Shown: piece after piece, positions 1-9,668 of the stretch | Position numbering within the stretch: the first letter of the stretch is position 1 | How the letters are laid out: each line of letters begins with the position of its first letter | The notes under the pieces: generated by a model | What the model was told of the DNA's origin: nothing | Seen by the model: the letters and a program-made list of their open reading frames with translations, nothing else | Database searches by the model: none | Position numbers and translations under genes: made by a program | Source: a virus | Lineage: Duplodnaviria > Heunggongvirae > Uroviricota > Caudoviricetes | Reading direction: 5' to 3' (one strand) | DNA: 9,668 nt | IMG/VR virus record: IMGVR_UViG_2657245500_000002 | Coordinates: 1 to 9,668 of that record

Positions 1-415
1 CGGCTATGCCTGACTTAAGCCGAGCATTTTCCATAAATAGAACTTTTGCCCGCTGTTTTTCTGCTTCAAGCTCAACGCGCAGCTTCCCTACCGTTAGCGC
101 AATATCCTCGTTCTCCTGATCGCGGCTTTTGATGTATTGCAGGTTTCTTTCCCGTTCATCCAGCAGTGCCAGCACGGTAGCCGGGTTAGCCTCTGCTATG
201 AATTCAGCGTTTGCATAAGCCTGAGCATCTGTTTCAATCAGGCAGTTAATATGACATTCCGCAATCACGCCACCGGGTTCTCCTTTCCATTTTTGGCAAA
301 CAAAAACTCCTGTTAAATTGCCGTGCTGGTTAACAGATGTATGCCCTACGATGTAGCTTCCTTTAGTTGCTTTCTCTGCCTTTTCACGCAGTGCCTGATA
401 GTCAATCTTGCTCAC
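1..415 (-). CDS. Ead/Ea22-like prophage protein, N-terminal ~138 codons only (C-terminus lies beyond the window start)
   Basis: Minus-strand frame open from the window edge up to a GTG at ~413-415, preceded by AGGAGG about 6 nt upstream. Hand translation: MSKIDYQALREKAEKATKGSYIVGHTSVNQHGNLTGVFVCQKWKGEPGGVIAECHINCLIETDAQAYANAEFIAEANPATVLALLDERERNLQYIKSRDQENEDIALTVGKLRVELEAEKQRAKVLFMENARLKSGIA. The FIAEANPA..L.LLDERE segment and following coiled coil match what I recall of Ea22-family proteins. Not in the ORF track because it is truncated. Confidence 0.5.
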   Translation of the reverse strand, partial: MSKIDYQALREKAEKATKGSYIVGHTSVNQHGNLTGVFVCQKWKGEPGGVIAECHINCLIETDAQAYANAEFIAEANPATVLALLDERERNLQYIKSRDQENEDIALTVGKLRVELEAEKQRAKVLFMENARLKSGIA

Positions 416-716
416 TGGCTGCCTCCTTTGCCGGGATTTCTAACTTTTGAGTGGTTGTATCAAATTCAAACAACTTAACCACGTCATCAAACAGGACATA
501 ATCACCATCAGGATCTTCAGTCATATCTGCGCCACAATCCTGACCGCACGAGTCGCAACCATCCATATCAAGCTCGTATCGCTTCAGGTTTGCGATATTT
601 GATAAATTCAGCGCCAGTACAGCCAGGTCATAAACCTCTTCGGCAGTGACATCGCTGTTCAGTCCCATTTCATGGCGATATATGATTTTTTCTACTCGTT
701 GTTTTGTGATCGTCAT
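402..716 (-). CDS. Hypothetical acidic protein with CxxC-x3-C cluster
   Basis: ORF track 402..740 (112 aa, TTG-initiated as listed). The in-frame ATG at 714-716 (MTITKQRVEKI...) is the more credible start. Cys cluster DGCDSCGQDCG and strongly acidic C-terminal half. No family recognised. Confidence 0.45.
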   Translation of the reverse strand: MTITKQRVEKIIYRHEMGLNSDVTAEEVYDLAVLALNLSNIANLKRYELDMDGCDSCGQDCGADMTEDPDGDYVLFDDVVKLFEFDTTTQKLEIPAKEAASEQD

Positions 717-746
717 TTTTCTCTTCACTCCGATATACAAGGATTA

Positions 747-986
747 CTACACCCCCTCTGCTGATTGCGCGAGCTGGATCCCCTGGTTCCATGCCGTCAA
801 TTCCGAAGGCTTCGAAAATGCATCCATTGCCTTCTGGCGTTGCTCCTGCTTACGGCGTTTATTCCATTTTTTCATGAACAACAGTGACAGCCATCGTCCG
901 CTGCAGAACATGATGTAGAAATAACCAAGAAGTGCCAGGCCGGTGTTCAGGGCCATATCAATCGTTATCGCCGGGTCAATATTCAC
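747..986 (-). CDS. Small membrane protein (one predicted TM helix, basic tail)
   Basis: ORF track. GTG start at 984-986 with AGGAGG 6 nt upstream; start overlaps the stop of the upstream DUF4406-like gene (976-978). Hydrophobic stretch AITIDMALNTGLALLGYFYIMF followed by KKWNKRRKQEQRQK. Confidence 0.5.
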   Translation of the reverse strand: MNIDPAITIDMALNTGLALLGYFYIMFCSGRWLSLLFMKKWNKRRKQEQRQKAMDAFSKPSELTAWNQGIQLAQSAEGV

Positions 987-1278
987 TGCCCACCTCCTGA
1001 AAAATCACCGCATGGCCCAGTTTCTCCGCCAGTGCCAGCTCAGCCCTTGCACCTGCCGACTGCTGCCAGCCTTTCAGCATGTAAACCGCATCCACGCAAC
1101 GGAGCATTGCCATGCAAATATCCATGTAGTGTGGTTGAGTCAGCCCGTCCGGAAGTACTGCCGGGTTTAAAACGGTATGCCCTTCCCGTTTCAGCGCATC
1201 TTCCGCCCTGTGAAACGCCTCGCGGTTGAAATTTTCATATCCCGTCATCGGACCGGCGATATAAATCCTCACCCTCAC
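976..1278 (-). CDS. DUF4406 / nucleoside 2-deoxyribosyltransferase-like phage protein
   Basis: ORF track. GTG start at 1276-1278 overlaps the TGA of the upstream gene (GTGA), with GGAGG ~8 nt upstream. N-terminal IYIAGPMTG...N...F motif and ~100-aa size match the DUF4406 pattern as recalled (not searched). Confidence 0.65.
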   Translation of the reverse strand: MRVRIYIAGPMTGYENFNREAFHRAEDALKREGHTVLNPAVLPDGLTQPHYMDICMAMLRCVDAVYMLKGWQQSAGARAELALAEKLGHAVIFQEVGSEY

Positions 1279-1529
1279 TCCTGAACCCTCCTGTCGAAAT
1301 AAACGTAGTTATTCACTGCGCCCAACTTCATCCCAAACTTTTCGGCAATTTCCCGTCGGGGTACGCCACGCTGATGCAGTTGCCGCGCCAGCTCAATATC
1401 ACGCTGTGAATATTTTGCCGACGGGTGAAAATCACCCCGTAAAATCATGCTGATACCCAGTTCCCGCGCTTTCGTCCTGACGGCTGACTCACTACGACCA
1501 ATCAGATAACCGATGCTTTCGACTCTCAT
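1275..1529 (-). CDS. Putative small DNA-binding protein (two HTH-like segments)
   Basis: ORF track 1275..1679 trimmed to the internal ATG at 1527-1529 (MRVESIGYLIGRSE...) to avoid a 90-nt overlap with the upstream gene. RBS is weak, so the start is uncertain. HTH-like segments SESAVRTKARELGIS and RREIAEKFGMKLGAVNNYV. Confidence 0.45.
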   Translation of the reverse strand: MRVESIGYLIGRSESAVRTKARELGISMILRGDFHPSAKYSQRDIELARQLHQRGVPRREIAEKFGMKLGAVNNYVYFDRRVQE

Positions 1530-1588
1530 CGTTCCCGCACACTGCCGGAGTATCAGGATTTCAGCCCAGCGCCACTTCTTCCAGCCAC

Positions 1589-2305
1589 TCACCGCTGCTG
1601 CTCTCTGGTGGCGGTAATATCCCGGAGAATATCCCTGTGTTTGTTCAGTTCCCGCAGCGCAGCACAGACTCGCTCCCACTTCTGGACATCACTTTTCGCC
1701 CGGCGCAGCTCGCGGTTAGCCACATGCAGCGATGGTAGAATCAGGTCATCTGCTTTCATTTCGGTGATCGATGGCTGTAACCTCACAATGTCTTCCACGA
1801 TTTCTGTTTTCATTTCTTCCTGTGCCATCATTTCCTGTACTGGTAACGCAACACCTGCTGGCTGAGGAAAGGCTTTACCATCGGTTTCCGCTACGGATGC
1901 AGCTTCCGGCTCTGCCGGTAAATCAGCGCCCGGTATGCAGTAACGAAATTTACCACCCTGATTCACGCGAATCAGACGCCCTTTGCTGATTGCCATGGCC
2001 AGCGATGAATTCGCCCGGCGGGAGGTAATCCCGAACATCAGTGCCAGCTCATCCGCCGTTTGTGGGCCATGTTGTTCAATCGCCTCAGTCAGCATTTGCG
2101 CTGTCACTTTCGGTACCGGTGACACCGGTTCACTTTCACCAGCCTGAATCAGCCACCACATCGAACCCTTGTTATCCGCTTCACCGCGGCGCTTCAGTTT
2201 CCACAGTTCGTTGACCGCATCTTCACGGCTGATTCCAAGGCGGGCCGCCACTACCTGTGAAGAGGCTCTTTTCAGTGCTTTCAGTGCGTCAAATACGGTT
2301 TCCAT
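1589..2305 (-). CDS. DUF1627-like protein with two tandem winged-helix-like segments
   Basis: ORF track 1589..2323 (TTG). In-frame ATG at 2303-2305 with GGAGG 8 nt upstream preferred. Two wHTH-like repeats ([41 protein letters not shown] and [44 protein letters not shown]), acidic linker, coiled-coil C-terminus. Family assignment is recalled, not verified. Confidence 0.55.
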
Positions 2306-2338
2306 TAAAATTTCCTCCGACAAAATCGTTTCTCAGAC

Positions 2339-3001
2339 TCAAATAAAACCAGCTGCCTTCCGGCGTTCGTATTCCTGTTTCAGCCGTTCAATTGGCGTTG
2401 GCCCTTGCGGGTGTTTCGCCCCTTCCAGTTGTCGTCGCACTGGCGGAACACTCATCCCGTTACCAACATGCTTTGCCCATTTCGTCAGTTGCCGTTCCGC
2501 AAGTCGTTTTAACTCACCCTGCGTCATCTGGCGCTCAATCCCTCTGGTACGCATTTCGAGGCAGATGTGGTACAGCACAGGCTGTGGCCACGGGTATTTA
2601 TCACTCCCGTCGTATCGCCAGGATTCATTGCGCCAGCGCCGGTACTCTTCCATCACTGCATCCACCGTAAGACCAAATGGATTTGCCCCACTCTCCGAAA
2701 TCAGTGCAACAAACTCAGCCAGGTCTGGGGGCCACGTTTCACCCGCCCGGCAGCGGTCCATGCACTGACGGCAGACCAGCCGGATTTGCTGTTCAGTCAT
2801 CGTGCCAATCTGGGCAATCCAGAGCTTCGAAGGTGCGGCCCCGTTCTTCTGAGTCCAGCGGTTCGAATACACCTCCCCCATAAGCTCCCACAGCTTCCAG
2901 GCCATTTCCGTTGCTGATAAATCCGTTGTCTCGTTCCCACTGTTCGCGTGCTGCCCGGATTTCCTGAACTGCCCGTGATGCCGTGCCACCTGATGCTGCA
3001 T
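2339..3001 (-). CDS. Replication protein P-like (lambda P family, DnaB helicase loader)
   Basis: ORF track. ATG at 2999-3001 with GGGGG 6 nt upstream. C-terminal two thirds align by eye with lambda P (PPDLAEFVALI vs PSPGQFVAWC; YPWPQPVLYHICLEMRTRGI...ELKRLAERQL vs YPWKSNAHYWLVTNLYQNMRANALTDAELRRKAADEL). The 5' 209 nt overlap the O-like gene out of frame; alternative internal starts at 2905, 2881 and 2800. Confidence 0.7.
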   Translation of the reverse strand: MQHQVARHHGQFRKSGQHANSGNETTDLSATEMAWKLWELMGEVYSNRWTQKNGAAPSKLWIAQIGTMTEQQIRLVCRQCMDRCRAGETWPPDLAEFVALISESGANPFGLTVDAVMEEYRRWRNESWRYDGSDKYPWPQPVLYHICLEMRTRGIERQMTQGELKRLAERQLTKWAKHVGNGMSVPPVRRQLEGAKHPQGPTPIERLKQEYERRKAAGFI

Positions 3002-3830
3002 GGCTTACCCCCTTGCTGACTGGTTTTACCTGTGTCCTGACGTGCTGCACGTGGCGGGCAAATTTCTGCTCCCACTGAACCTGTGTGAAAACCTTCCCCT
3101 CCGCCATCCAGTAATCCCGGAATGCGGCAAGCTCAGCAGGTGTAAATTCCGGCTCAGGCAGAGCCATACCCCACACTGCTGCCCGTTGTCGAAAATCCGA
3201 CGACGGCTGCCAGACAGTAGTCATCGAAAATTTCCCGATCGGTTCGCTCAGGCCGTCCAGGTATTCAGGTTCGGCTGTCTGCAACGGCGCACCATGCGAC
3301 TCACCGGTTGGAGCACTCTCGCGCATGCGCGCGTTATGTGTGGGGTTTAATTCTGTATCTGTATCTTTATCTGTCGTGACTTGTCGTGACAGATGCGTGA
3401 CACGTCGTGACTCATCGTGACAATCAGCATCATATTTCCGCAGCTTTTCGCGCTCCCGCTGCGCTCTCTTGCGCTCTGCCGGGGATTTTGCCGTTTGCGA
3501 AACGTTACCATTGTCCTCTTTCAGCACCTGACGTTTTTCCCATCCGGAAATAAGGTCACCATCCAGAACCCGCCCCTGCATTGCATGCAAAATTGAATCA
3601 ATTACGTCTTCCGTCACATCAAGCGCACTTGCTAAATCTTCCGTCGTGACATCAATGTGACCACGTAGTGACACGCCGTGACATGTCGTGACATTTCGTG
3701 ACGCACTCACCAGAAGGTGGATATACACCGCCATCACTGTTGCGATTGGCTGTCCTGAGACCCTGGCAATGGTTCGCCATTTGGGATCATTTGGCATGTC
3801 ATGCCACAATCTGAGCCAGGCATTAGCCAT
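2793..3830 (-). CDS. Replisome organizer (lambda O-like / YdaU-like replication initiator)
   Basis: ORF track 2793..3836 (GTG). ATG at 3828-3830 with GAGG 5 nt upstream preferred. N-terminus WLRLWHDMPNDPKWRTIA matches the phage replisome-organizer N-terminal domain signature; C-terminal half resembles the DnaT/YdaU-like region. The gene contains the phased repeat arrays listed below. Confidence 0.75.
   Translation of the reverse strand: MANAWLRLWHDMPNDPKWRTIARVSGQPIATVMAVYIHLLVSASRNVTTCHGVSLRGHIDVTTEDLASALDVTEDVIDSILHAMQGRVLDGDLISGWEKRQVLKEDNGNVSQTAKSPAERKRAQREREKLRKYDADCHDESRRVTHLSRQVTTDKDTDTELNPTHNARMRESAPTGESHGAPLQTAEPEYLDGLSEPIGKFSMTTVWQPSSDFRQRAAVWGMALPEPEFTPAELAAFRDYWMAEGKVFTQVQWEQKFARHVQHVRTQVKPVSKGVSHAASGGTASRAVQEIRAAREQWERDNGFISNGNGLEAVGAYGGGVFEPLDSEERGRTFEALDCPDWHDD
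3375..3421. repeat. Iteron-like array A: 5 direct copies of CGTGAC phased at 10-11 bp, inside the O-like gene
   Basis: CGTGAC at 3375, 3385, 3396, 3406, 3416 (spacing 10/11/10/10). Flanked on the low-coordinate side by a TATCT-type short repeat (3351-3372) and on the other by three GCGCTC copies (3449-3478). Encodes residues ~136-152 of the O-like protein. Confidence 0.6.
3645..3703. repeat. Iteron-like array B: 6 direct copies of (C/T/A)GTGAC phased at 10-12 bp, inside the O-like gene
   Basis: CGTGAC at 3645, TGTGAC 3656, AGTGAC 3668, CGTGAC 3678, 3688, 3698. An inverted copy (ccGTCAC) sits near 3613-3618. Encodes residues ~42-62 of the O-like protein. Confidence 0.55.
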
Positions 3831-3898
3831 ACTCACCTCATCTGATACCGAACTTTACCCTCGAACATCCGGAAGAAATCCGGCATGAATATTGTTGG

Positions 3899-4324
3899 TC
3901 AATGCACGACAACAGCATTACCAGGCTGACCACCACTGTTAGTCAGGGTGCCCCAGGCGATCGCCGCTGCGACAAAATCATCCACATCTTTCACCAGCCG
4001 ATCCCTCCGTTCGACGATCTCACGGTAATATTCAGAGCTGTGACTGCGCATACGGGCCACCAGCAGAGGCGGCATTGCCTTTTCGATCGCCGGTAACAGA
4101 GCCTGAATTTTTTCAACAGCATCAGGGGTGTCTTTATCCAGCCAACGGAAAATTTTCTGGGTATTACGAGCCAGGGCTTCCGGATGGCTGTCGTCGTACA
4201 GTTCCGGGAACGTCATTCCCAGCTCGAAATACGCTTTGGTAATTTTCGCAGCCGGTACTTTTTCGCCGTCCGGATGCGCCCAGACATTCATCGCCATGCG
4301 GATGTGTTCATGCTTGATTTTCAT
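3899..4324 (-). CDS. YdaT-like protein (CII-position regulator, toxin-annotated family)
   Basis: ORF track. ATG at 4322-4324 with AGGAG 8 nt upstream. Begins MKIKHEHI and ends VVVH, as recalled for Rac YdaT. Overlaps the cro-like stop by 17 nt. Confidence 0.7.
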   Translation of the reverse strand: MKIKHEHIRMAMNVWAHPDGEKVPAAKITKAYFELGMTFPELYDDSHPEALARNTQKIFRWLDKDTPDAVEKIQALLPAIEKAMPPLLVARMRSHSSEYYREIVERRDRLVKDVDDFVAAAIAWGTLTNSGGQPGNAVVVH

Positions 4325-4589
4325 GAATCAAGCTCCTAGAAAGTGGTTGTGTTAACGTTTTGGTATCTTCCAGCTCGGGCCAAATATTCATCCAATCAAA
4401 AGGCCTTAGTTGCTGACGTGTAACTTCACCATTACTGGCTCGCTCAATAAGGACACATAACGATGCCCCTAACACTTGACCTTTACTCAATGCTTTTCTT
4501 AGATAACCGATGCTGGTATCACACTCGCATGCAAACATACGCTGTTCATCTGACGAAAGAGAATTGAGAAATATTCTTAATTCTTCCAT
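4308..4589 (-). CDS. Cro-like HTH regulator, YdaS family
   Basis: ORF track. ATG at 4587-4589 with AAGGAG 5 nt upstream. Segment LCVLIERASNGEVTRQQLRPFDW matches the YdaS-type motif as recalled. First gene of the leftward operon, divergent from the repressor. Confidence 0.7.
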   Translation of the reverse strand: MEELRIFLNSLSSDEQRMFACECDTSIGYLRKALSKGQVLGASLCVLIERASNGEVTRQQLRPFDWMNIWPELEDTKTLTQPLSRSLIHENQA

Positions 4590-4594
4590 AGCTA

Positions 4595-4689
4595 CTCCTT
4601 AGTAAACACAGCAAAGAATACCCGCAGGTAAACAAAAGTCAATACCCACAGGTTGTTTACCTTGCGGTAATCGCATCTATTATTTACCT
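4595..4689. promoter_or_regulatory. Immunity switch: divergent promoters plus three operator-like palindromes
   Basis: TACC-N4-GGTA-type sites at 4619-4630 (tacccgcaggta), 4643-4654 (tacccacaggtt) and 4658-4669 (taccttgcggta). Leftward promoter: -35 TTGACT (revcomp of 4637-4642), 16-bp spacer, -10 TATTCT (revcomp of 4615-4620). Rightward promoter: -10 TATTAT (4678-4683), weak -35, start site predicted at the A of the repressor ATG (leaderless). Confidence 0.55.
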
Positions 4690-5109
4690 ATGGACAAATA
4701 TGAATTTAGACGACAGCAACTCATCAAAATTCGTGATGAGAAATGCGATGGTAAAGCGGTTAACGTGGCCAGAAAGATCGGGCGCGAGCCTTCTTATGTA
4801 TCAAGAATGTTGTACCCAGAGGGGAAAAAGGGAAAAAAACGGATCGCTGATGATATGGTGGAGATTATCGAAGAGTCCTTTGGGTTACCCCGGGGATGGA
4901 TGGATGGTATCGTTTCATCATCAACGAACACAGCCTCCAGTTATGAAACAAGGGTTCTAACGCCACGACAACGTATTTTTTTAGATCTCTTAGACGAACT
5001 GCCAGAAAGTGAAGCGGATAAATTATTAAAAACTCTTGAAGAGAAAAAACAGTATTACAATATGATCTACGAAGAAATCCGTAAAAAGAAAGCACAAAAC
5101 GCATCATAG
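4690..5109 (+). CDS. Prophage repressor, DicA/RacR-like HTH protein without peptidase domain
   Basis: ORF track. N-terminal HTH (GKAVNVARKIGREPSYVSRML); C-terminal LDLLDELPESEADKLL resembles the DicA ALPESEQD motif as recalled. 139 aa with no S24 peptidase domain. No SD upstream, consistent with leaderless translation. Confidence 0.75.
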   Translation: MDKYEFRRQQLIKIRDEKCDGKAVNVARKIGREPSYVSRMLYPEGKKGKKRIADDMVEIIEESFGLPRGWMDGIVSSSTNTASSYETRVLTPRQRIFLDLLDELPESEADKLLKTLEEKKQYYNMIYEEIRKKKAQNAS

Positions 5110-5152
5110 CTCACCAAACAACTAGTCACCAGTTAAGACACCGCAAAAATTT

Positions 5153-5187
5153 ACCCATAGGTATTTACTTTTTAAATACCTATGGGT
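5153..5187. terminator. Palindromic hairpin (15-bp perfect stem, 5-nt loop) after the repressor gene; probable bidirectional intrinsic terminator
   Basis: acccataggtattta (5153-5167) and taaatacctatgggt (5173-5187) are exact reverse complements. A-tract upstream (aaaaattt), T-rich tract downstream (tccttcttttcat). Lies 44 nt after the repressor stop. Confidence 0.5.
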
Positions 5188-5373
5188 ATCCTTCTTTTCA
5201 TACCAACCCACCCCGCCCCACAGAATGCAGGGCAATACTTCGAGTTACCCGGCAGTGGTCAGGGGTTAAGTAGCCAGCCCGAGGCGTATGAACATGACGG
5301 CGGGAACACTTTGTATAACAGCGCAGCAGGTTTTTGTTCCGCTCCCCCGGCGTTAAGGGGAAATGAGGTCAAC

Positions 5374-5526
5374 ATGGATACTATCGATCTTGGCAACAGC
5401 GAATCTCTGGTATGCGGCGTGTTTCCCAACCAGGACGGCACGTTTACCGCGATGACGTATACCAAAAGTAAAACGTTTAAAACCGAAGCTGGCGCGCATC
5501 GCTGGTTAGCAAGAAACTCCGACTGA
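5374..5526 (+). CDS. YdfA/YdaF-like small protein (50 aa)
   Basis: Internal ATG at 5374-5376 of ORF track 5182..5526, with GAGG 5 nt upstream; the longer listed ORF would start inside the terminator hairpin. Product MDTIDLGNSESLVCGVFPNQDGTFTAMTYTKSKTFKTEAGAHRWLARNSD resembles the ~50-aa proteins encoded next to dicA/racR (recalled). Confidence 0.6.
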   Translation: MDTIDLGNSESLVCGVFPNQDGTFTAMTYTKSKTFKTEAGAHRWLARNSD

Positions 5527-5537
5527 TGAGGTTGACG

Positions 5538-5939
5538 ATGGAATTTAAAGATTTACCAGTACCATTCCAGGAAATGGCATCTAATGTGGTTCGCTCTCAA
5601 CTGGCGACTCTTGACCTGAGTACTGTAGAAAAGGAAACCATCGATACTATATCCGGTAACGTGCGTCGTGCCTTTATAGGTCTGTATGAAGAGAAGCGCC
5701 TATTCGGCGGACAGAATTCGACTGAAAACAAGAATCAAGCAAATGATGAGAAGCTGAAACACATTATCGCCTTACTTTTGGAAGACGCAAAACGTCTACA
5801 GCAACTGGAACCAAATGCAGGCACAGAGGCCCGCATTTGGATTGCCATGAAATCACTCAAATGTGAAAGCAGTGATTATTTCAAAACAACAATTAAAACT
5901 ACTCAACTTTCGGGAGAGCTACTGAAGAAATTGCCATAA
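5538..5939 (+). CDS. Hypothetical protein, 133 aa, no recognisable domain
   Basis: ORF track 5526..5939. ATG at 5538-5540 with GAGG 6 nt upstream preferred (the ATG at 5526 overlaps the upstream stop as TGATG). No TM segment or motif recognised; lower GC than flanks. Confidence 0.6.
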   Translation: MEFKDLPVPFQEMASNVVRSQLATLDLSTVEKETIDTISGNVRRAFIGLYEEKRLFGGQNSTENKNQANDEKLKHIIALLLEDAKRLQQLEPNAGTEARIWIAMKSLKCESSDYFKTTIKTTQLSGELLKKLP

Positions 5940-6093
5940 GAGCATGGTCTTTCTCTTGTTCTGCAAGATGAGCATTAATACCTGCTATGGTTTTTTCAAA
6001 TTTATCTATCTGTTGAATAACAACTTCGCGGTATACGTTTGTATTTGTACCACCAAGCGCAGCCGTTAATGCAGAAAGCATATTTAGTATCAT
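5899..6093 (-). CDS. Small ORF-b (64 aa), translationally coupled to ORF-a
   Basis: In-frame internal ATG (6091-6093) of ORF track 5899..6183, placed 1 nt after the TGA of ORF-a (TGAtATG). Product MILNMLSALTAALGGTNTNVYREVVIQQIDKFEKTIAGINAHLAEQEKDHALMAISSVALPKVE. Its 3' end overlaps the 3' end of the 133-aa gene by 41 nt (convergent). The track's GTG at 6183 directly abuts the SD and is implausible as a start. Confidence 0.35.
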   Translation of the reverse strand: MILNMLSALTAALGGTNTNVYREVVIQQIDKFEKTIAGINAHLAEQEKDHALMAISSVALPKVE

Positions 6094-6094
6094 A

Positions 6095-6178
6095 TCAGTG
6101 CGATATGAAAAGAATCCTGATAGCTTCATCTTGTTTTTCAATAATAGATTGCAGGGCCTCAATTTGCTTTTTATCCAT
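6095..6178 (-). CDS. Small ORF-a (27 aa) with strong SD
   Basis: Below the ORF-track size cut-off. ATG at 6176-6178 preceded by AGGAGG (revcomp of 6184-6189) with a 5-nt spacer. Product MDKKQIEALQSIIEKQDEAIRILFISH looks like an amphipathic helix. TGA at 6095-6097. Confidence 0.3.
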   Translation of the reverse strand: MDKKQIEALQSIIEKQDEAIRILFISH

Positions 6179-6512
6179 TTCACCCTCCTGAGGGTTGGTA
6201 ATTAAGGAGTTCTCCACGGGTCAGGTGGAGTGCGTGCGCCGGACACGGGTGAGCATCCGGCACTGACAGTTTACTGAAAAGGATATATCCCTGAAAAGTC
6301 AGGGCATAACACGAAAGCGCCCGGCGAAGTTAGTCTCTCTGTATAGGTCGTCATTAAATTTTCGTCGACCGCGCGCTTCCGGTTGTGGCACTCCGCGAAA
6401 TGGCGCGGCGGTAAGTATGGCGGGGTTATTCCTTCCCCGTTGAGGACACCGGGTTGTCAGGTTGACCATACGCTTAAGTGACAACCCCGCTGCAACGCCC
6501 TCTGTTATCAAT

Positions 6513-6570
6513 TTTCTGGTGACGTTTGGCGGTATCAGTTTTACTCCGTGACTGCTCTGCCACCCTTTTT
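6513..6570 (+). ncRNA. dicF: DicF small RNA (53 nt plus U-tract)
   Basis: tttctggtgacgtttggcggtatcagttttactccgtgactgctctgccaccc followed by TTTTT matches the DicF sRNA of the Qin dicB operon as recalled. It sits immediately upstream of dicB, as in Qin. Confidence 0.7.
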
Positions 6571-6574
6571 AAAG

Positions 6575-6735
6575 TGAATTTTGTGATGCGGTGAATGCGG
6601 CTATGCGCACGCGGAACAGTTAAAACCGTAAAGTGGTCTTTTACGGGGCGTAACGGGCATCCTTCTGTATTCCGGCGTTAATTGTTAACTGGTTAACGTC
6701 ACCTGGAGGCACCAGGCACCGCATCACAAAATTCA
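6575..6735 (+). repeat. 19-bp perfect long-range inverted repeat bracketing the dicF-dicB spacer
   Basis: 6575-6593 (tgaattttgtgatgcggtg) is the exact reverse complement of 6717-6735, with a 123-nt spacer. The left arm starts 5 nt after the DicF U-tract; the right arm ends 5 nt before the dicB SD (GAGGA 6741-6745). Confidence 0.6.
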
Positions 6736-6752
6736 TTGTTGAGGACGCGATA

Positions 6753-6941
6753 ATGGAAACGTTATTACCAAACGTTAATACGTCTGAAGGTTGTTTTGAT
6801 ATTGGTGTTCTGCTCAGTAACCGGGAGTTTACGGAAGATGCCATTAAGATGAGAAAATATGAACCTTATCTTCTCAATGATAATTCCATACTTTCCAGAA
6901 TTGCCCTTCTTGAACTTGGTATTATCGGAGAACAGCAGTGA
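6753..6941 (+). CDS. dicB: Cell division inhibitor DicB
   Basis: ORF track. ATG at 6753 with GAGGA 7 nt upstream. The 62-aa product METLLPNVNTSEGCFDIGVLLSNREFTEDAIKMRKYEPYLLNDNSILSRIALLELGIIGEQQ matches DicB in length and in the N-terminus as recalled (METLLPNVNTSEGCFEIGV...FTEDAI). Confidence 0.8.
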   Translation: METLLPNVNTSEGCFDIGVLLSNREFTEDAIKMRKYEPYLLNDNSILSRIALLELGIIGEQQ

Positions 6942-7126
6942 CTTCAGCATTTGCACTGGTGATGACCGTTTTTCTTATAACGGGTGAGCCACAAAATGTG
7001 ATTACCGGAATTTATGACAGTAAGTCATCCTGCATTCAGGTAAGGGACGAACAAAAAATCCCCGGTGAATGCCTCCCGTTAAAAAAAGTATCGCTGAACC
7101 TGAATAACGAAATACCGGCTGGATAA
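6938..7126 (+). CDS. ydfD: YdfD-like small membrane protein (lysis protein family in Qin)
   Basis: ORF track. GTG start overlaps the dicB stop (GTGA at 6938-6941). 62 aa with an N-terminal hydrophobic segment (SAFALVMTVFLITG). Assignment rests on position, size and features, not a verified alignment. Confidence 0.55.
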   Translation: MTSAFALVMTVFLITGEPQNVITGIYDSKSSCIQVRDEQKIPGECLPLKKVSLNLNNEIPAG

Positions 7127-7221
7127 CCCGCCAGCCATATTAACGCCATACCAACGGATTAAAAATGCCAGCAATGGCAGGGATTCGTTCACCCTGAAAT
7201 CTGTAATGAGGTTAAAACAAA

Positions 7222-9668
7222 ATGAGTAAAGTCTTTATTTGCGCCGCTATTCCTGACGAACTGGCAACAAGGGAAGAAGGCGCTGTGGCTGTAGCCACAG
7301 CCATTGAAGCTGGCGACGAACGCCGTGCTCGAGCAAAATTTCACTGGCAATTCCTGGAACATTATCCGGCTGCTCAGGACTGCGCTTATAAATTTATTGT
7401 CTGCGAGGATAAACCCGGCATACCCCGCCCTGCCCTCGATTCCTGGGATACCGAATATATGCAGGAAAATCGCTGGGATGAGGAGTCAGCTTCCTTTGTA
7501 CCGGTCGAACCTGAATCCGATCCGATGAACGTCAATTTTGACAAGCTGTCCCCTGAAGTACAGAACGCAGTCCTGGTTAAATTCGACACATGCGAAAACA
7601 TCACCGTTGATATGGTGATTAGCGCACAGGAATTACTACAGGAAGACATGGCAACATTCGGCGGACATATCGTTGAAGCGTTTATGAAAATGCCAGAAGT
7701 TAACTCCATGTATCCTGAACTTAAACTGCATGCCATCGGGTGGGTTAAGCATAAATGTGAGCCTGGCGCTAAATGGCCTGAAATTCAGGCAGAGATGCGC
7801 ATCTGGAAAAAACGCCGCGAAGGTGAACGCAAGGAAACCGGAAAATACACGTCTGTTGTTGATCTCGCCCGTTCCAGAGTAAACCAACAGAACACTGAAA
7901 ACGCTGCTGAAAAAAACGGAGCTGTCACTGTTGCCGTTCGCCGCGAATACAAACAGACATGGAAAACTCTCGACAATGAGCTGGCCTGCGCCCTCTGGCC
8001 CGGTGATGTGGATGCGGGAAACATTGACGGCAGCATCCATCGCTGGGCAAAAAATGAAGTTATCGACAACGACCGCGAAGACTGGAAGCGTATCTCGGCA
8101 TCAATGCGCAAACAGCCTGAAGCACTTGGCTATGACCGTCAGACTATTTTTGGCCTTGTCCGTGAACGTCCGATCGACATTCACAAAGATCCCGTGGCGC
8201 TGAACAAATACATCACTGAATACCTGACTACAAAGGGCGTGTTTGAAGATGAAGGAACAAATCAGAGCACAACTAATACTCTCCCGTCGCCAGTACCAGA
8301 AGCTGATGCAGTGGAAACGGCAATGCCGGACAACGAAAAAACCGAATGCAAAGTGGAAGTCGAACCATCTGTAGAGCGTGAGGGGCCGTTCTACTTCCTC
8401 TTCACCGACAAGGATGGCGAAAAATACGGTCGCGCAAACAAACTTTCTGGTCTGGATAAGGCGCTGGCTGCCGGGGCAACTGAAATCACGAAAGAAGAAT
8501 ATTTTGCCCGCAAAAACGGCACATACACAGGTTCACAACAAAATACTGATGCATCTGACACGACCGCACAACCAGACCTGGTAAAAGTTACCGCTGACGA
8601 AGTAAACAAAATTATGCAGGCAGCCAGTATCAGCCAGCCTGACGCCGATAAGTTGCTTGCTGCCTCTCGCGGAGAATTTGTTGCAGGGATTAGCGACCCG
8701 AATGATCCGAAATGGGTAAAGGGGATTGAAACCCGCGATTCTGTGCACCAGAACCAGTCAGAAACGGAACAGTACGACCAAAAAGCGGAACAAAACAGCC
8801 AAAATGCGTTACAAAACGAGCCAGAAACGAAACAACCTGAACCAGTAGTGCAACAGGAACCGGAAAAGATCTGCACCGCCTGCGGTCAGACCGGCGGCGG
8901 CAACTGCCCTGATTGTGGCGCGGTGATGGGCGACGCAACATACCAGGAAACATTCGATGAAGAGTATCAGGTTGAAGTTCAGGAAGATGATCCGGAGGAA
9001 ATGGAAGGCGCTGAACATCCACACAAGGAGAATGCTGGCAGCGCTCAGGATCACGCCAGCGATAGTGAAACTGGCGAGACGGCAGATCCCTTAATTACGG
9101 TGAACGGTCATCACGTTATCACATCCACCAGCAGGTTTTGGCACCATCTGATGATTGACCTTGAAACAATGGGCAAAAATCCTGATGCCCCGATTATCTC
9201 AATAGATGCAATATTTTTCGATCCGCAAACCGGAGATATGGGACCGGAATTTAGTAAGACTATCGATCTGGAAACTGCTGGCGGAGTCATTGATCGGGAC
9301 ACCATTAAATGGTGGCTTAAGCAATCACGCGAAGCGCAATCTGCCATTATGACCGATGAAATCCCGTTAGATGATCCGGAGGAAATGGAAGGCGCTGAAC
9401 ATCCACACAAGGAGAACACTGGCGGCAATCAGCATCACAATAGCGATAATGAAACTGGCGAGACGGCAGATCCCTTAATTACGGTGAACGGTCATCACGT
9501 TATCACATCCACCAGCAGGTTGTGGCACCATCTGATGATTGACCTTGAAACCATGGGAAAAAATCCTGATGCCCCGATCATCTCAATAGGTGCAATATTT
9601 TTCGATCCGCAAACCGGAGATATGGGACCGGAATTTAGTAAGACTATCGATCTGGAAACTGCTGGCGG
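7222..9668 (+). CDS. YdfE/RecE-like large exonuclease-family protein, 5' portion (at least 815 codons, no stop in window)
   Basis: Frame open from ATG 7222 (in-frame TAA at 7213-7215, GAGG 10 nt upstream) to the window end; absent from the ORF track because unterminated. N-terminus MSKVFICAAIPDELATREEG. Contains CxxC-x7-CxxC (8872-8916) and, from ~9100, a DnaQ-like DEDD Exo I motif (HHLMIDLETMG). Position after dicB-ydfD corresponds to ydfE of Qin or recE of Rac; the nuclease core lies beyond the window. Confidence 0.6.
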   Translation, partial: MSKVFICAAIPDELATREEGAVAVATAIEAGDERRARAKFHWQFLEHYPAAQDCAYKFIVCEDKPGIPRPALDSWDTEYMQENRWDEESASFVPVEPESDPMNVNFDKLSPEVQNAVLVKFDTCENITVDMVISAQELLQEDMATFGGHIVEAFMKMPEVNSMYPELKLHAIGWVKHKCEPGAKWPEIQAEMRIWKKRREGERKETGKYTSVVDLARSRVNQQNTENAAEKNGAVTVAVRREYKQTWKTLDNELACALWPGDVDAGNIDGSIHRWAKNEVIDNDREDWKRISASMRKQPEALGYDRQTIFGLVRERPIDIHKDPVALNKYITEYLTTKGVFEDEGTNQSTTNTLPSPVPEADAVETAMPDNEKTECKVEVEPSVEREGPFYFLFTDKDGEKYGRANKLSGLDKALAAGATEITKEEYFARKNGTYTGSQQNTDASDTTAQPDLVKVTADEVNKIMQAASISQPDADKLLAASRGEFVAGISDPNDPKWVKGIETRDSVHQNQSETEQYDQKAEQNSQNALQNEPETKQPEPVVQQEPEKICTACGQTGGGNCPDCGAVMGDATYQETFDEEYQVEVQEDDPEEMEGAEHPHKENAGSAQDHASDSETGETADPLITVNGHHVITSTSRFWHHLMIDLETMGKNPDAPIISIDAIFFDPQTGDMGPEFSKTIDLETAGGVIDRDTIKWWLKQSREAQSAIMTDEIPLDDPEEMEGAEHPHKENTGGNQHHNSDNETGETADPLITVNGHHVITSTSRLWHHLMIDLETMGKNPDAPIISIGAIFFDPQTGDMGPEFSKTIDLETAG
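8986..9668 (+). repeat. In-frame tandem duplication, 384-bp period, within the large exonuclease-like ORF
   Basis: Copy 1 is 8986-9369; copy 2 starts at 9370 and is cut by the window end. About 95% identical over the 299 bp visible, with differences clustered at ~9030-9065 versus ~9414-9449. Each copy encodes DDPEEMEGAEHPHKEN...HHLMIDLETMGKNPDAPIISI.AIFFDPQTGDMGPEFSKTIDLETAGG. Confidence 0.8.

Follow-up and report, generated by a model that had tools for sequence, protein, structure and literature searches.

The locus at positions 5899-6178 raises the question whether two short minus-strand open reading frames, which follow each other almost without a gap, are two genes translated in a coupled manner or the remains of one gene. 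The window, as we call the whole stretch of 9,668 nucleotides that was analysed, is an E. coli lambdoid prophage of the DicF/DicB (Qin-like) type, and the original prediction had left two answers side by side: a coupled two-gene module (toxin/antitoxin-like or a small regulator), or one gene of about 92 codons split by a frameshift. The comparison with related genomes favours the second of them. With a probability of about 0.88 in our estimation, ORF-a and ORF-b are the halves of one 92-codon gene, named Y here, which was inactivated in this prophage lineage by the +1 insertion of a T (T3 to T4).

All elements described for the pair could be located on the minus strand. The Shine-Dalgarno (SD) sequence AGGAGG (6184-6189) is followed by the 5-nt spacer GTGAA (6179-6183) and by the ATG (6176-6178) of ORF-a, which occupies 6095-6178 and consists of 27 codons and a TGA at 6095-6097. 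Its translation, MDKKQIEALQSIIEKQDEAIRILFISH, corresponds to native residues 1-23 of Y and continues with the out-of-frame FISH. A single nucleotide (6094) separates this stop from the start of ORF-b, the junction being UGA-U-AUG, and ORF-b (5899-6093) runs for 64 codons to a TAG at 5899-5901. It represents native residues 29-92 (MILNM...LPKVE), its ATG at 6091-6093 is the native Met29 codon, and no SD-like motif is visible upstream of it. Together the two frames constitute the frameshifted copy (pseudogene), at 5899-6178 on the minus strand, of a 92-codon prophage accessory gene that belongs to phrog_18692 and is represented in its intact form by WP_000358769.1 and WP_000358771.1.

The site of the frameshift was recognized by pairwise alignment with ECO_1_S, which is 98.8% identical over the locus and carries one annotated 279-nt minus-strand CDS there; the sole length difference is TTT in place of the TTTT of the window. 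The T4 run is found at 6108-6111 on the minus strand (AAAA on the plus strand), and the sequence spanning the slip region is AGGAUUCUUUUCAUA. Removal of one T from the window restores a 92-aa ORF, 97-98% identical to the intact E. coli proteins, while the frame of the T4 allele stops at codon 28. When 5426 complete E. coli genomes were searched with allele-specific 49- and 50-mers, T3 was detected in 121 genomes, E2348/69, 042, SE11 and CE10 among them, and T4 in 5, i.e. the ORF is single and intact in 121/126 carriers. The profile search that had been suggested for the two peptides and for their fusion gave the same picture: ORF-a matched positions 1-23 of phrog_18692 (E 1.9e-10), ORF-b positions 29-92 (E 2.8e-40), and the intact protein positions 1-92 of 92 (E 8e-63). 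No single ORF of the window covers this profile from end to end; its copy gives two separate matches in different frames and has to be regarded as a disrupted member of the family. Residues 24-28 are missing from both fragments, including the family-invariant R26 and the near-invariant Y25 and D28. Among the invariant residues only R26 is lost in the window, while L9, L31, S35, R50, E75, K76 and S85 are kept on one or the other fragment. Furthermore, the homologues of Y in Salmonella, Klebsiella oxytoca and metagenomes are uninterrupted single ORFs of 90-98 aa across the frameshift site, and R26 is invariant in a 15-sequence alignment reaching 24% identity. The 121 T3 genomes, the single ORFs of the diverged homologues and the invariance of R26 are the reasons why the intact state is considered to be ancestral.

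These data also bear on the idea that ORF-a and ORF-b form a genuine translationally coupled two-gene module, either toxin/antitoxin-like or a regulator with its partner. The strong SD before ORF-a, the UGA-U-AUG junction, typical of termination-reinitiation, and the occurrence of the split allele in five complete genomes would all fit such a module. However, the two parts are fused in frame in the great majority of the carriers and in all diverged homologues, both of them lie in one family profile at consecutive positions, the junction deletes the invariant R26, and no PADLOC or TA-family match was obtained. The stop-start arrangement exists in the mutant allele only, and its second "start" is an internal methionine codon of the native gene; because ORF-b begins at native Met29 and has no visible SD-like motif in front of it, the apparent coupling is best explained as an accident of the frameshift. 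We regard the two-gene module as extremely improbable, and the reading as one split gene was retained.

An extra base in a homopolymer may also originate from sequencing or assembly, in which case the gene would be intact in the real organism. Such an error would be a single-base difference in a run, as is the case here, and most of the other frameshifted Y variants in the protein database stem from drafts or metagenomes. The distribution of the T4 allele argues against this explanation. The five T4 genomes are complete assemblies from three projects, made in Japan, Ecuador and Chile, all with the prophage at the same yccA-side site and all with the same linked substitutions, N45 and A65. In SW070917, which is one of the five, the repressor/cro region differs and the left arm shows 3.3% divergence from that of the window, and yet its Y equals the window copy in every base, the two linked substitutions included. 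Truncated products of the T4 type also form separate protein clusters (P0010 and P0013) from ENA and NCBI sources, and errors do not typically cluster at runs as short as four bases. Being shared across countries, across two immunity regions and by independent protein clusters, the T4 allele is an inherited variant and a sequencing error is unlikely; we consider this explanation highly improbable. The second homopolymer of Y, an A6 run, was intact in 126/126 complete genomes. Its A5 variant was absent from the complete genomes, although A5-type products are present in the protein database; these are probably draft-assembly errors or rare variants.

The split allele might still be functional, either by low-level +1 slippage or by association of the 27-aa fragment with a reinitiated 64-aa fragment. 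The T4 context, A-UUC-UUU-UCA, contains CUU_U, the slip site used in prfB, with an AGGA two nucleotides upstream, and a +1 slip at this site would recreate the wild-type protein exactly (...ILSYRTD...). Additionally, ORF-b starts one nucleotide past the ORF-a stop with a native methionine, and in the AlphaFold2 model the break lies inside the long first helix. On the other hand, the codon in the A site during the slip would be UUC, which is a sense codon and not a slow stop, and the configuration is unconserved, occurring in 5/126 genomes and in no outgroup, as would not be expected of a programmed frameshift. A protein assembled from two pieces would be devoid of residues 24-28, with R26, Y25 and D28 among them. 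Nothing suggests that a reinitiation or a slippage route has been selected, and residual function of either kind appears quite improbable to us. The window feature, understood as the frameshifted half-pair of Y, is a lineage-specific, ordinary pseudogene of a catalogued prophage gene.

The original prediction had judged the minus strand to be protein-like and the plus-strand ORFs over the same DNA to be poor coding candidates, and both judgements held. The plus-strand ORFs over Y, with a length of only 41 and 50 aa, are hydrophobic and carry no annotation, and none of the homologous loci has a single uninterrupted plus-strand ORF in this place. The minus strand carries a RefSeq-annotated frame, it matches the PHROG profile end to end once repaired, and it has the lowest dN/dS of the six frames. 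The Y frame is under purifying selection: compared with a Salmonella homologue (L006), dN/dS was 0.24, with pS 0.47 and pN 0.16. The ORF length of 90-98 aa is retained down to 24-33% identity.

The family of intact Y is already catalogued as phrog_18692, and it is uncharacterised. It is narrow: among 1.84 billion representatives, searched exhaustively with an HMM, it comprised only 13 clusters at 50% identity, none of them named and each of them from Enterobacteriaceae; RefSeq labels the 92-aa intact products WP_000358769.1 and WP_000358771.1 as "hypothetical protein". AlphaFold2 with a 15-sequence alignment yielded a model with pLDDT 83.8 and pTM 0.70, in which a long helix (residues 3-41) is followed by shorter helices at 47-59 and 69-85; a run with 3 sequences was poor (pLDDT 68.6) and was not used. 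The maximum 19-residue Kyte-Doolittle mean is 0.93, and Y is predicted to be a small soluble three-helix protein. A reading of Y as a type I toxin, i.e. a membrane peptide, was rejected on this hydropathy, which indicated no transmembrane segment. Nothing significant was found in Pfam, NCBIfam and PADLOC, where the best match was RelB-like (E 0.013, 15.7 bits against a cutoff of 50), and the best E in a sequence-profile search of the PDB was 0.62. The Qin antirepressor Rem was also considered as a relative of Y and rejected, since no alignment was obtained. Literature searches by accession and family id returned nothing on Y, and the INPHARED phage genomes contained no DNA or tblastn match to it. 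Y was seen only in integrated prophages and islands.

Positions 1-9375 of the window are 99.85% identical to the prophage located beside yccA in E. coli JE86-ST05. The minus strand of the window encodes replication genes, a YdaT-family gene and a cro-like gene. Plus-strand genes are, first, the repressor of 139 aa (4690-5109), then a DUF1391/ydfA-like gene and then the convergent partner of Y, a 133-aa gene called X here (5538-5939). On the 3' side of the X/Y region there are a structured leader of about 330 nt, DicF, dicB (6753-6941), a DUF1482/ydfD-like gene and a RecE-like exonuclease. The DicF sRNA gene (6514-6565, plus strand) is a member of Rfam RF00039, its covariance-model score of 70.1 bits (E 3e-14) exceeding the gathering score of 48. 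The ydfABC-dicF-dicB operon of K-12 has dicBp as its promoter, DicA as its repressor and a transcript that RNase III and RNase E process (10.1101/2023.04.14.536235). The gene order of the K-12 Qin dicBF operon (dicA; ydfA-ydfB-ydfC-dicF-dicB-ydfD) recurs in the window as repressor, DUF1391/ydfA-like gene, structured leader, DicF, DicB and DUF1482/ydfD-like gene. Both X and Y are absent from K-12 Qin; the window has about 650 bp comprising X, Y and the SD of Y where K-12 has ydfB and ydfC, so that in comparison with K-12 the segment appears as if inserted after the ydfA/ydfC genes and ahead of the ydfC-dicF leader. From about 6193 onwards the two sequences are homologous again, and they align closely as far as dicF (mean identity 92% over a 372-column alignment in which the non-homologous left flank is included). 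Unlike the K-12 operon genes, Y stands on the strand opposite the operon. The intact E. coli members of phrog_18692 are this same gene, and they too are flanked by the DUF1391/X genes and by the dicF leader; the window copy differs from them in having the +1 T insertion.

The convergent arrangement deserves separate consideration. X is annotated by PGAP as WP_001625307.1 and consists of two modules with separate PHROG matches, a widely conserved N-terminal one (aa 1-64) and a variable C-terminal one (aa 69-117). X ends over the 3' end of Y, to which its stop and the 13 codons before it are antisense; the overlap of ORF-b with the 133-aa gene is indeed 41 nt long (5899-5939), as it had been given. 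In Salmonella lambdoid prophages a separate gene of 71 aa corresponds to the C-terminal module of X, and it is likewise convergent with Y with a 41-nt overlap; the module changes together with the antisense gene. Among the homologous loci the overlap measures 41, 23, 21 or 0 nt; since its length varies in this way it is taken to be incidental, and the 41-nt overlap was rejected as a conserved regulatory feature. The expectation of transcriptional interference or antisense pairing with the 133-aa gene was sound in principle and understated in extent: judged by analogy with the K-12 dicBF operon, the whole of Y would lie antisense inside the early-left transcription unit leading to dicF and dicB, and not the 41-nt overlap alone.

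The slot of Y is polymorphic. In EC931 it holds WP_000102678.1 (91 aa), which is distantly homologous to Y (28% identity; E 1e-5 in the pairwise comparison). It shares with Y the slot, the leader, the SD and the convergence with an X-type gene, and differs from it in having no PHROG match, another C-terminal module of X and a 23-nt overlap. In O157:H7 the slot is occupied by an unrelated 77-aa gene (phrog_10348); like the EC931 gene, it is preceded by the upstream leader and SD that are found in the window. ETEC4073 has a 151-aa zinc-ribbon protein on the minus strand, to the right of the conserved stretch and without the shared leader. Outside the lambdoid setting, P2-like Salmonella prophages carry Y downstream of cox and head-on to the early operon, with a 41-nt overlap with a cII-like HTH gene, a 21-nt overlap with another gene, or no overlap. 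In all prophage contexts examined Y pointed against the early-operon genes next to it, and this head-on placement, close to the immunity region, is the constant of the prophage loci. The only non-prophage locus is a K. oxytoca island, where Y stands alone beside an integrase and there is no early operon to compare.

Upstream of the Y ATG about 85 nt are conserved in most contexts. The RNAalifold consensus for the 5' leader of Y (6185-6261, minus strand) contains three hairpins, HP1 (6238-6261), HP2 (6212-6230) and HP3 (6185-6209), all on the minus strand; in HP3 an anti-SD CUCCU pairs with the AGGAG of the SD, and this pairing is conserved as CUCC(U/A) with (A/U)GGAG. The GGAGG is kept in most homologous loci and diverged in two of them (L017 and L020). 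The SD had been called perfect in the original prediction; because HP3 pairs with it, it is probably masked in the free mRNA. Over 11 loci, 92.4% of the cells were paired as compared with 33-45% when the partners were slid, 6 pairs had changes on both sides, and none of 500 shuffles reached the observed covariation score. In the window the folding of the leader was much stronger on the minus strand (z = -3.22) than on the plus strand (z = -0.62), and several of its G-U pairs become A-C mismatches on the opposite strand. The strand bias is clear only in the promoter-proximal 93 nt: for the long dicF leader (6193-6513) RNAalifold gave similar structures on both strands, with -79.6 and -72.6 kcal/mol. 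Additionally, HP1 and HP2 are present in K-12, which has no Y, so the conservation of these two hairpins may partly serve the plus-strand dicF precursor.

A weak candidate promoter for Y lies just upstream of HP1 on the minus strand (6268-6297), with TTTTCA (6292-6297), an 18-nt spacer and TAAACT (6268-6273), scoring 8/12; the E. coli sequence of this putative element is not conserved in Salmonella. At the aligned position a TGnTA extended -10-like motif was present in 5/9 aligned loci (L006, L010, L012, L018 and L019). The standard, stricter scan detected no consensus sigma-70 promoter on the minus strand, and no terminator was detected between the end of Y and the bidirectional hairpin at 5152-5188.

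The properties of the leader could be taken to mean that the locus is non-coding, that its minus-strand transcript has no role other than that of an antisense RNA to the early-left operon, and that the ORF is incidental. The leader and the SD are also used by unrelated ORFs of the slot in other prophages, as exemplified by the 77-aa gene of O157, and K-12 keeps part of the leader without any ORF. This interpretation does not agree with the dN/dS of 0.24 reached at a pS as high as 0.47, with the ORF length held among the most diverged homologues, with a fold prediction that became confident after the alignment had been deepened, or with the conservation of the SD. The chance that the locus is antisense-only is practically negligible in our view, and Y is treated as a protein-coding gene in what follows.

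How intact Y might work can be proposed from its position and leader. It could be a self-contained accessory (moron-like) unit, inserted on the opposite strand in a DicA-controlled early-left operon of the dicBF type, and its promoter probably lies immediately before the conserved leader, with the pairing of HP3 and the SD gating its translation. Since Y faces an operon with toxic dicF, dicB and ydfD-like genes, it would be expressed in the lysogen, where the operon is repressed, and on induction it would be silenced by head-on transcription and duplex RNA. Our best guess is that Y is a lysogen-expressed factor of regulatory or protective nature. From the window allele only the 27-residue N-terminal peptide would be made efficiently from the strong SD, and the role of Y has most likely been lost there.

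Lysogen-expressed accessory genes of phages, or morons, are exemplified by rexAB, sieB and bor of lambda. Y resembles these in being a small and dispensable mosaic cassette by the immunity region, present, absent or swapped between otherwise similar prophages, and apparently in having its own expression signals. It differs from them in being antisense to its host operon and not co-directional with it, and in that no terminator was found. A second comparison is offered by type I toxin-antitoxin loci with convergent, 3'-overlapping transcripts, such as txpA/RatA and bsrG/SR4 of Bacillus subtilis. The convergent 3' overlap, the structured 5' leader pairing with the SD and the prophage location are common features, but Y encodes a soluble-looking helical protein of 92 aa in place of a hydrophobic peptide of less than 60 aa, and its overlap partner is a protein-coding mRNA, with an overlap that varies between 0 and 41 nt among the loci.

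A more far-reaching proposal, which we put forward tentatively and consider rather unlikely at present, is that intact Y and its SD-pairing three-hairpin leader form a dedicated lysogeny-side module, which would either hold back leaky expression of toxic early genes (dicF, dicB and the ydfD-like gene) as a safety catch or serve as a new exclusion factor. It might act by way of its protein, small and helical, or by means of convergent transcription and duplex RNA. Two unrelated phage architectures have Y head-on to the start of the early lytic operon, on the early-left side in lambdoid prophages and on the Cox side in P2-like ones. If this proposal were true, the T4 allele of the window would be a natural loss-of-function mutant.

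The window illustrates the single-base pseudogenisation of a prophage accessory gene, in which an apparently coupled pair vanishes once related genomes are compared. The remnant is listed in RefSeq as a 76-aa protein (WP_225380399.1) that is not flagged as a pseudogene, and protein catalogues are inflated by such entries. Y adjoins the toxic dicF/dicB cassette, the control of which in lysogens is only partly understood, and the Y family with its structured leader offers a modest lead on how dicBF-type prophage regions stay silent. Matched natural alleles are available for asking what Y does: E2348/69 has a repressor protein identical to that of the window (WP_000362153.1) together with an intact Y, locus E2348C_RS07385, and JE86-ST05 and the UCPROB strains have the same repressor protein with the frameshifted gene. 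The host prophage also has other frameshifted or truncated genes, and these additional broken genes are consistent with decay of the prophage.

The place beside X where Y lies (Y being the 92-codon minus-strand gene of phrog_18692, split in the window by a frameshift) is occupied in other E. coli prophages by differing genes of the minus strand, namely a 77-aa phrog_10348 protein in O157:H7 (L003 2276-2509), a remote 91-aa homologue of Y in EC931 (L004 2228-2503) and a 151-aa protein with a coiled coil and a zinc ribbon (phrog_1244) in ETEC4073 (L005 2616-3071). The same leader and Shine-Dalgarno sequence as those of Y are reused by the O157 and EC931 genes, and this slot seems to be a hotspot for accessory genes in antisense orientation. 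The convergent plus-strand gene X (5538-5939) encodes a two-module protein of 133 aa: the N-terminal part (aa 1-64; phrog_1363, phrog_6937) shows wide conservation, and the C-terminal part (aa 69-117) matches phrog_30817, phrog_12693, phrog_32391 and phrog_2982. In other prophages this C-terminal part and the antisense gene have been swapped together, and in Salmonella the same part is found as a stand-alone gene of 71 aa.

The frameshifted remnant of Y was called by RefSeq/PGAP in JE86-ST05 (L001), L014 and L015 as an ordinary 76-aa protein, WP_225380399.1, starting at window position 6129, with no mark that it is a pseudogenic member of the 92-aa family.

The spacer of about 320 nt between Y and the DicF gene (window 6193-6513; L016 6063-6382) aligns closely with the ydfC-dicF spacer of K-12 and is also kept in P2-like Salmonella prophages (L012 4640-5000), in which no Rfam DicF match was obtained at the gathering threshold. 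Within this spacer about 6305-6330 pairs with 6390-6415 to form a long stem, in which compensatory changes are present; RNAalifold did not distinguish which strand the structure of the spacer serves. A plus-strand hairpin, CCCTGA-AAAG-TCAGGG, stands at 6289-6304, and O157 has a compensatory form of it (CTCTGA...TCAGAG). The hairpin bears a superficial likeness to a lambdoid boxB/nut-type stem-loop, and its loop holds the candidate -35 element of the putative Y promoter.

In the Y-bearing P2-like Salmonella elements, the same early operon also contains, further downstream and on the minus strand, the sequence of a C4-type antisense RNA (Rfam RF01695, 77 bits; L012 4026-4113, L013 4034-4121). 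In the lambdoid prophage L017, genes for a HipA-like kinase and a DUF3037 protein (4628-6276, minus strand) separate the Y homologue from the cI-like repressor and so occupy the position of rexAB in lambda.

Going downstream from Y on the minus strand, the first terminator-like site lies at 5152-5188, just downstream of the repressor gene. There a perfect palindrome of 16 bp forms a hairpin, with T-runs after it on either strand, and the element resembles a bidirectional terminator dividing the repressor from the early-left operon.

Within the plus-strand RecE-like exonuclease gene there is a 300-nt direct repeat (8973-9272 and 9357-9656), the copies of which are 93% identical and spaced by 384 nt; the colinear alignment of the window with JE86-ST05 stops at 9375, within the second copy.
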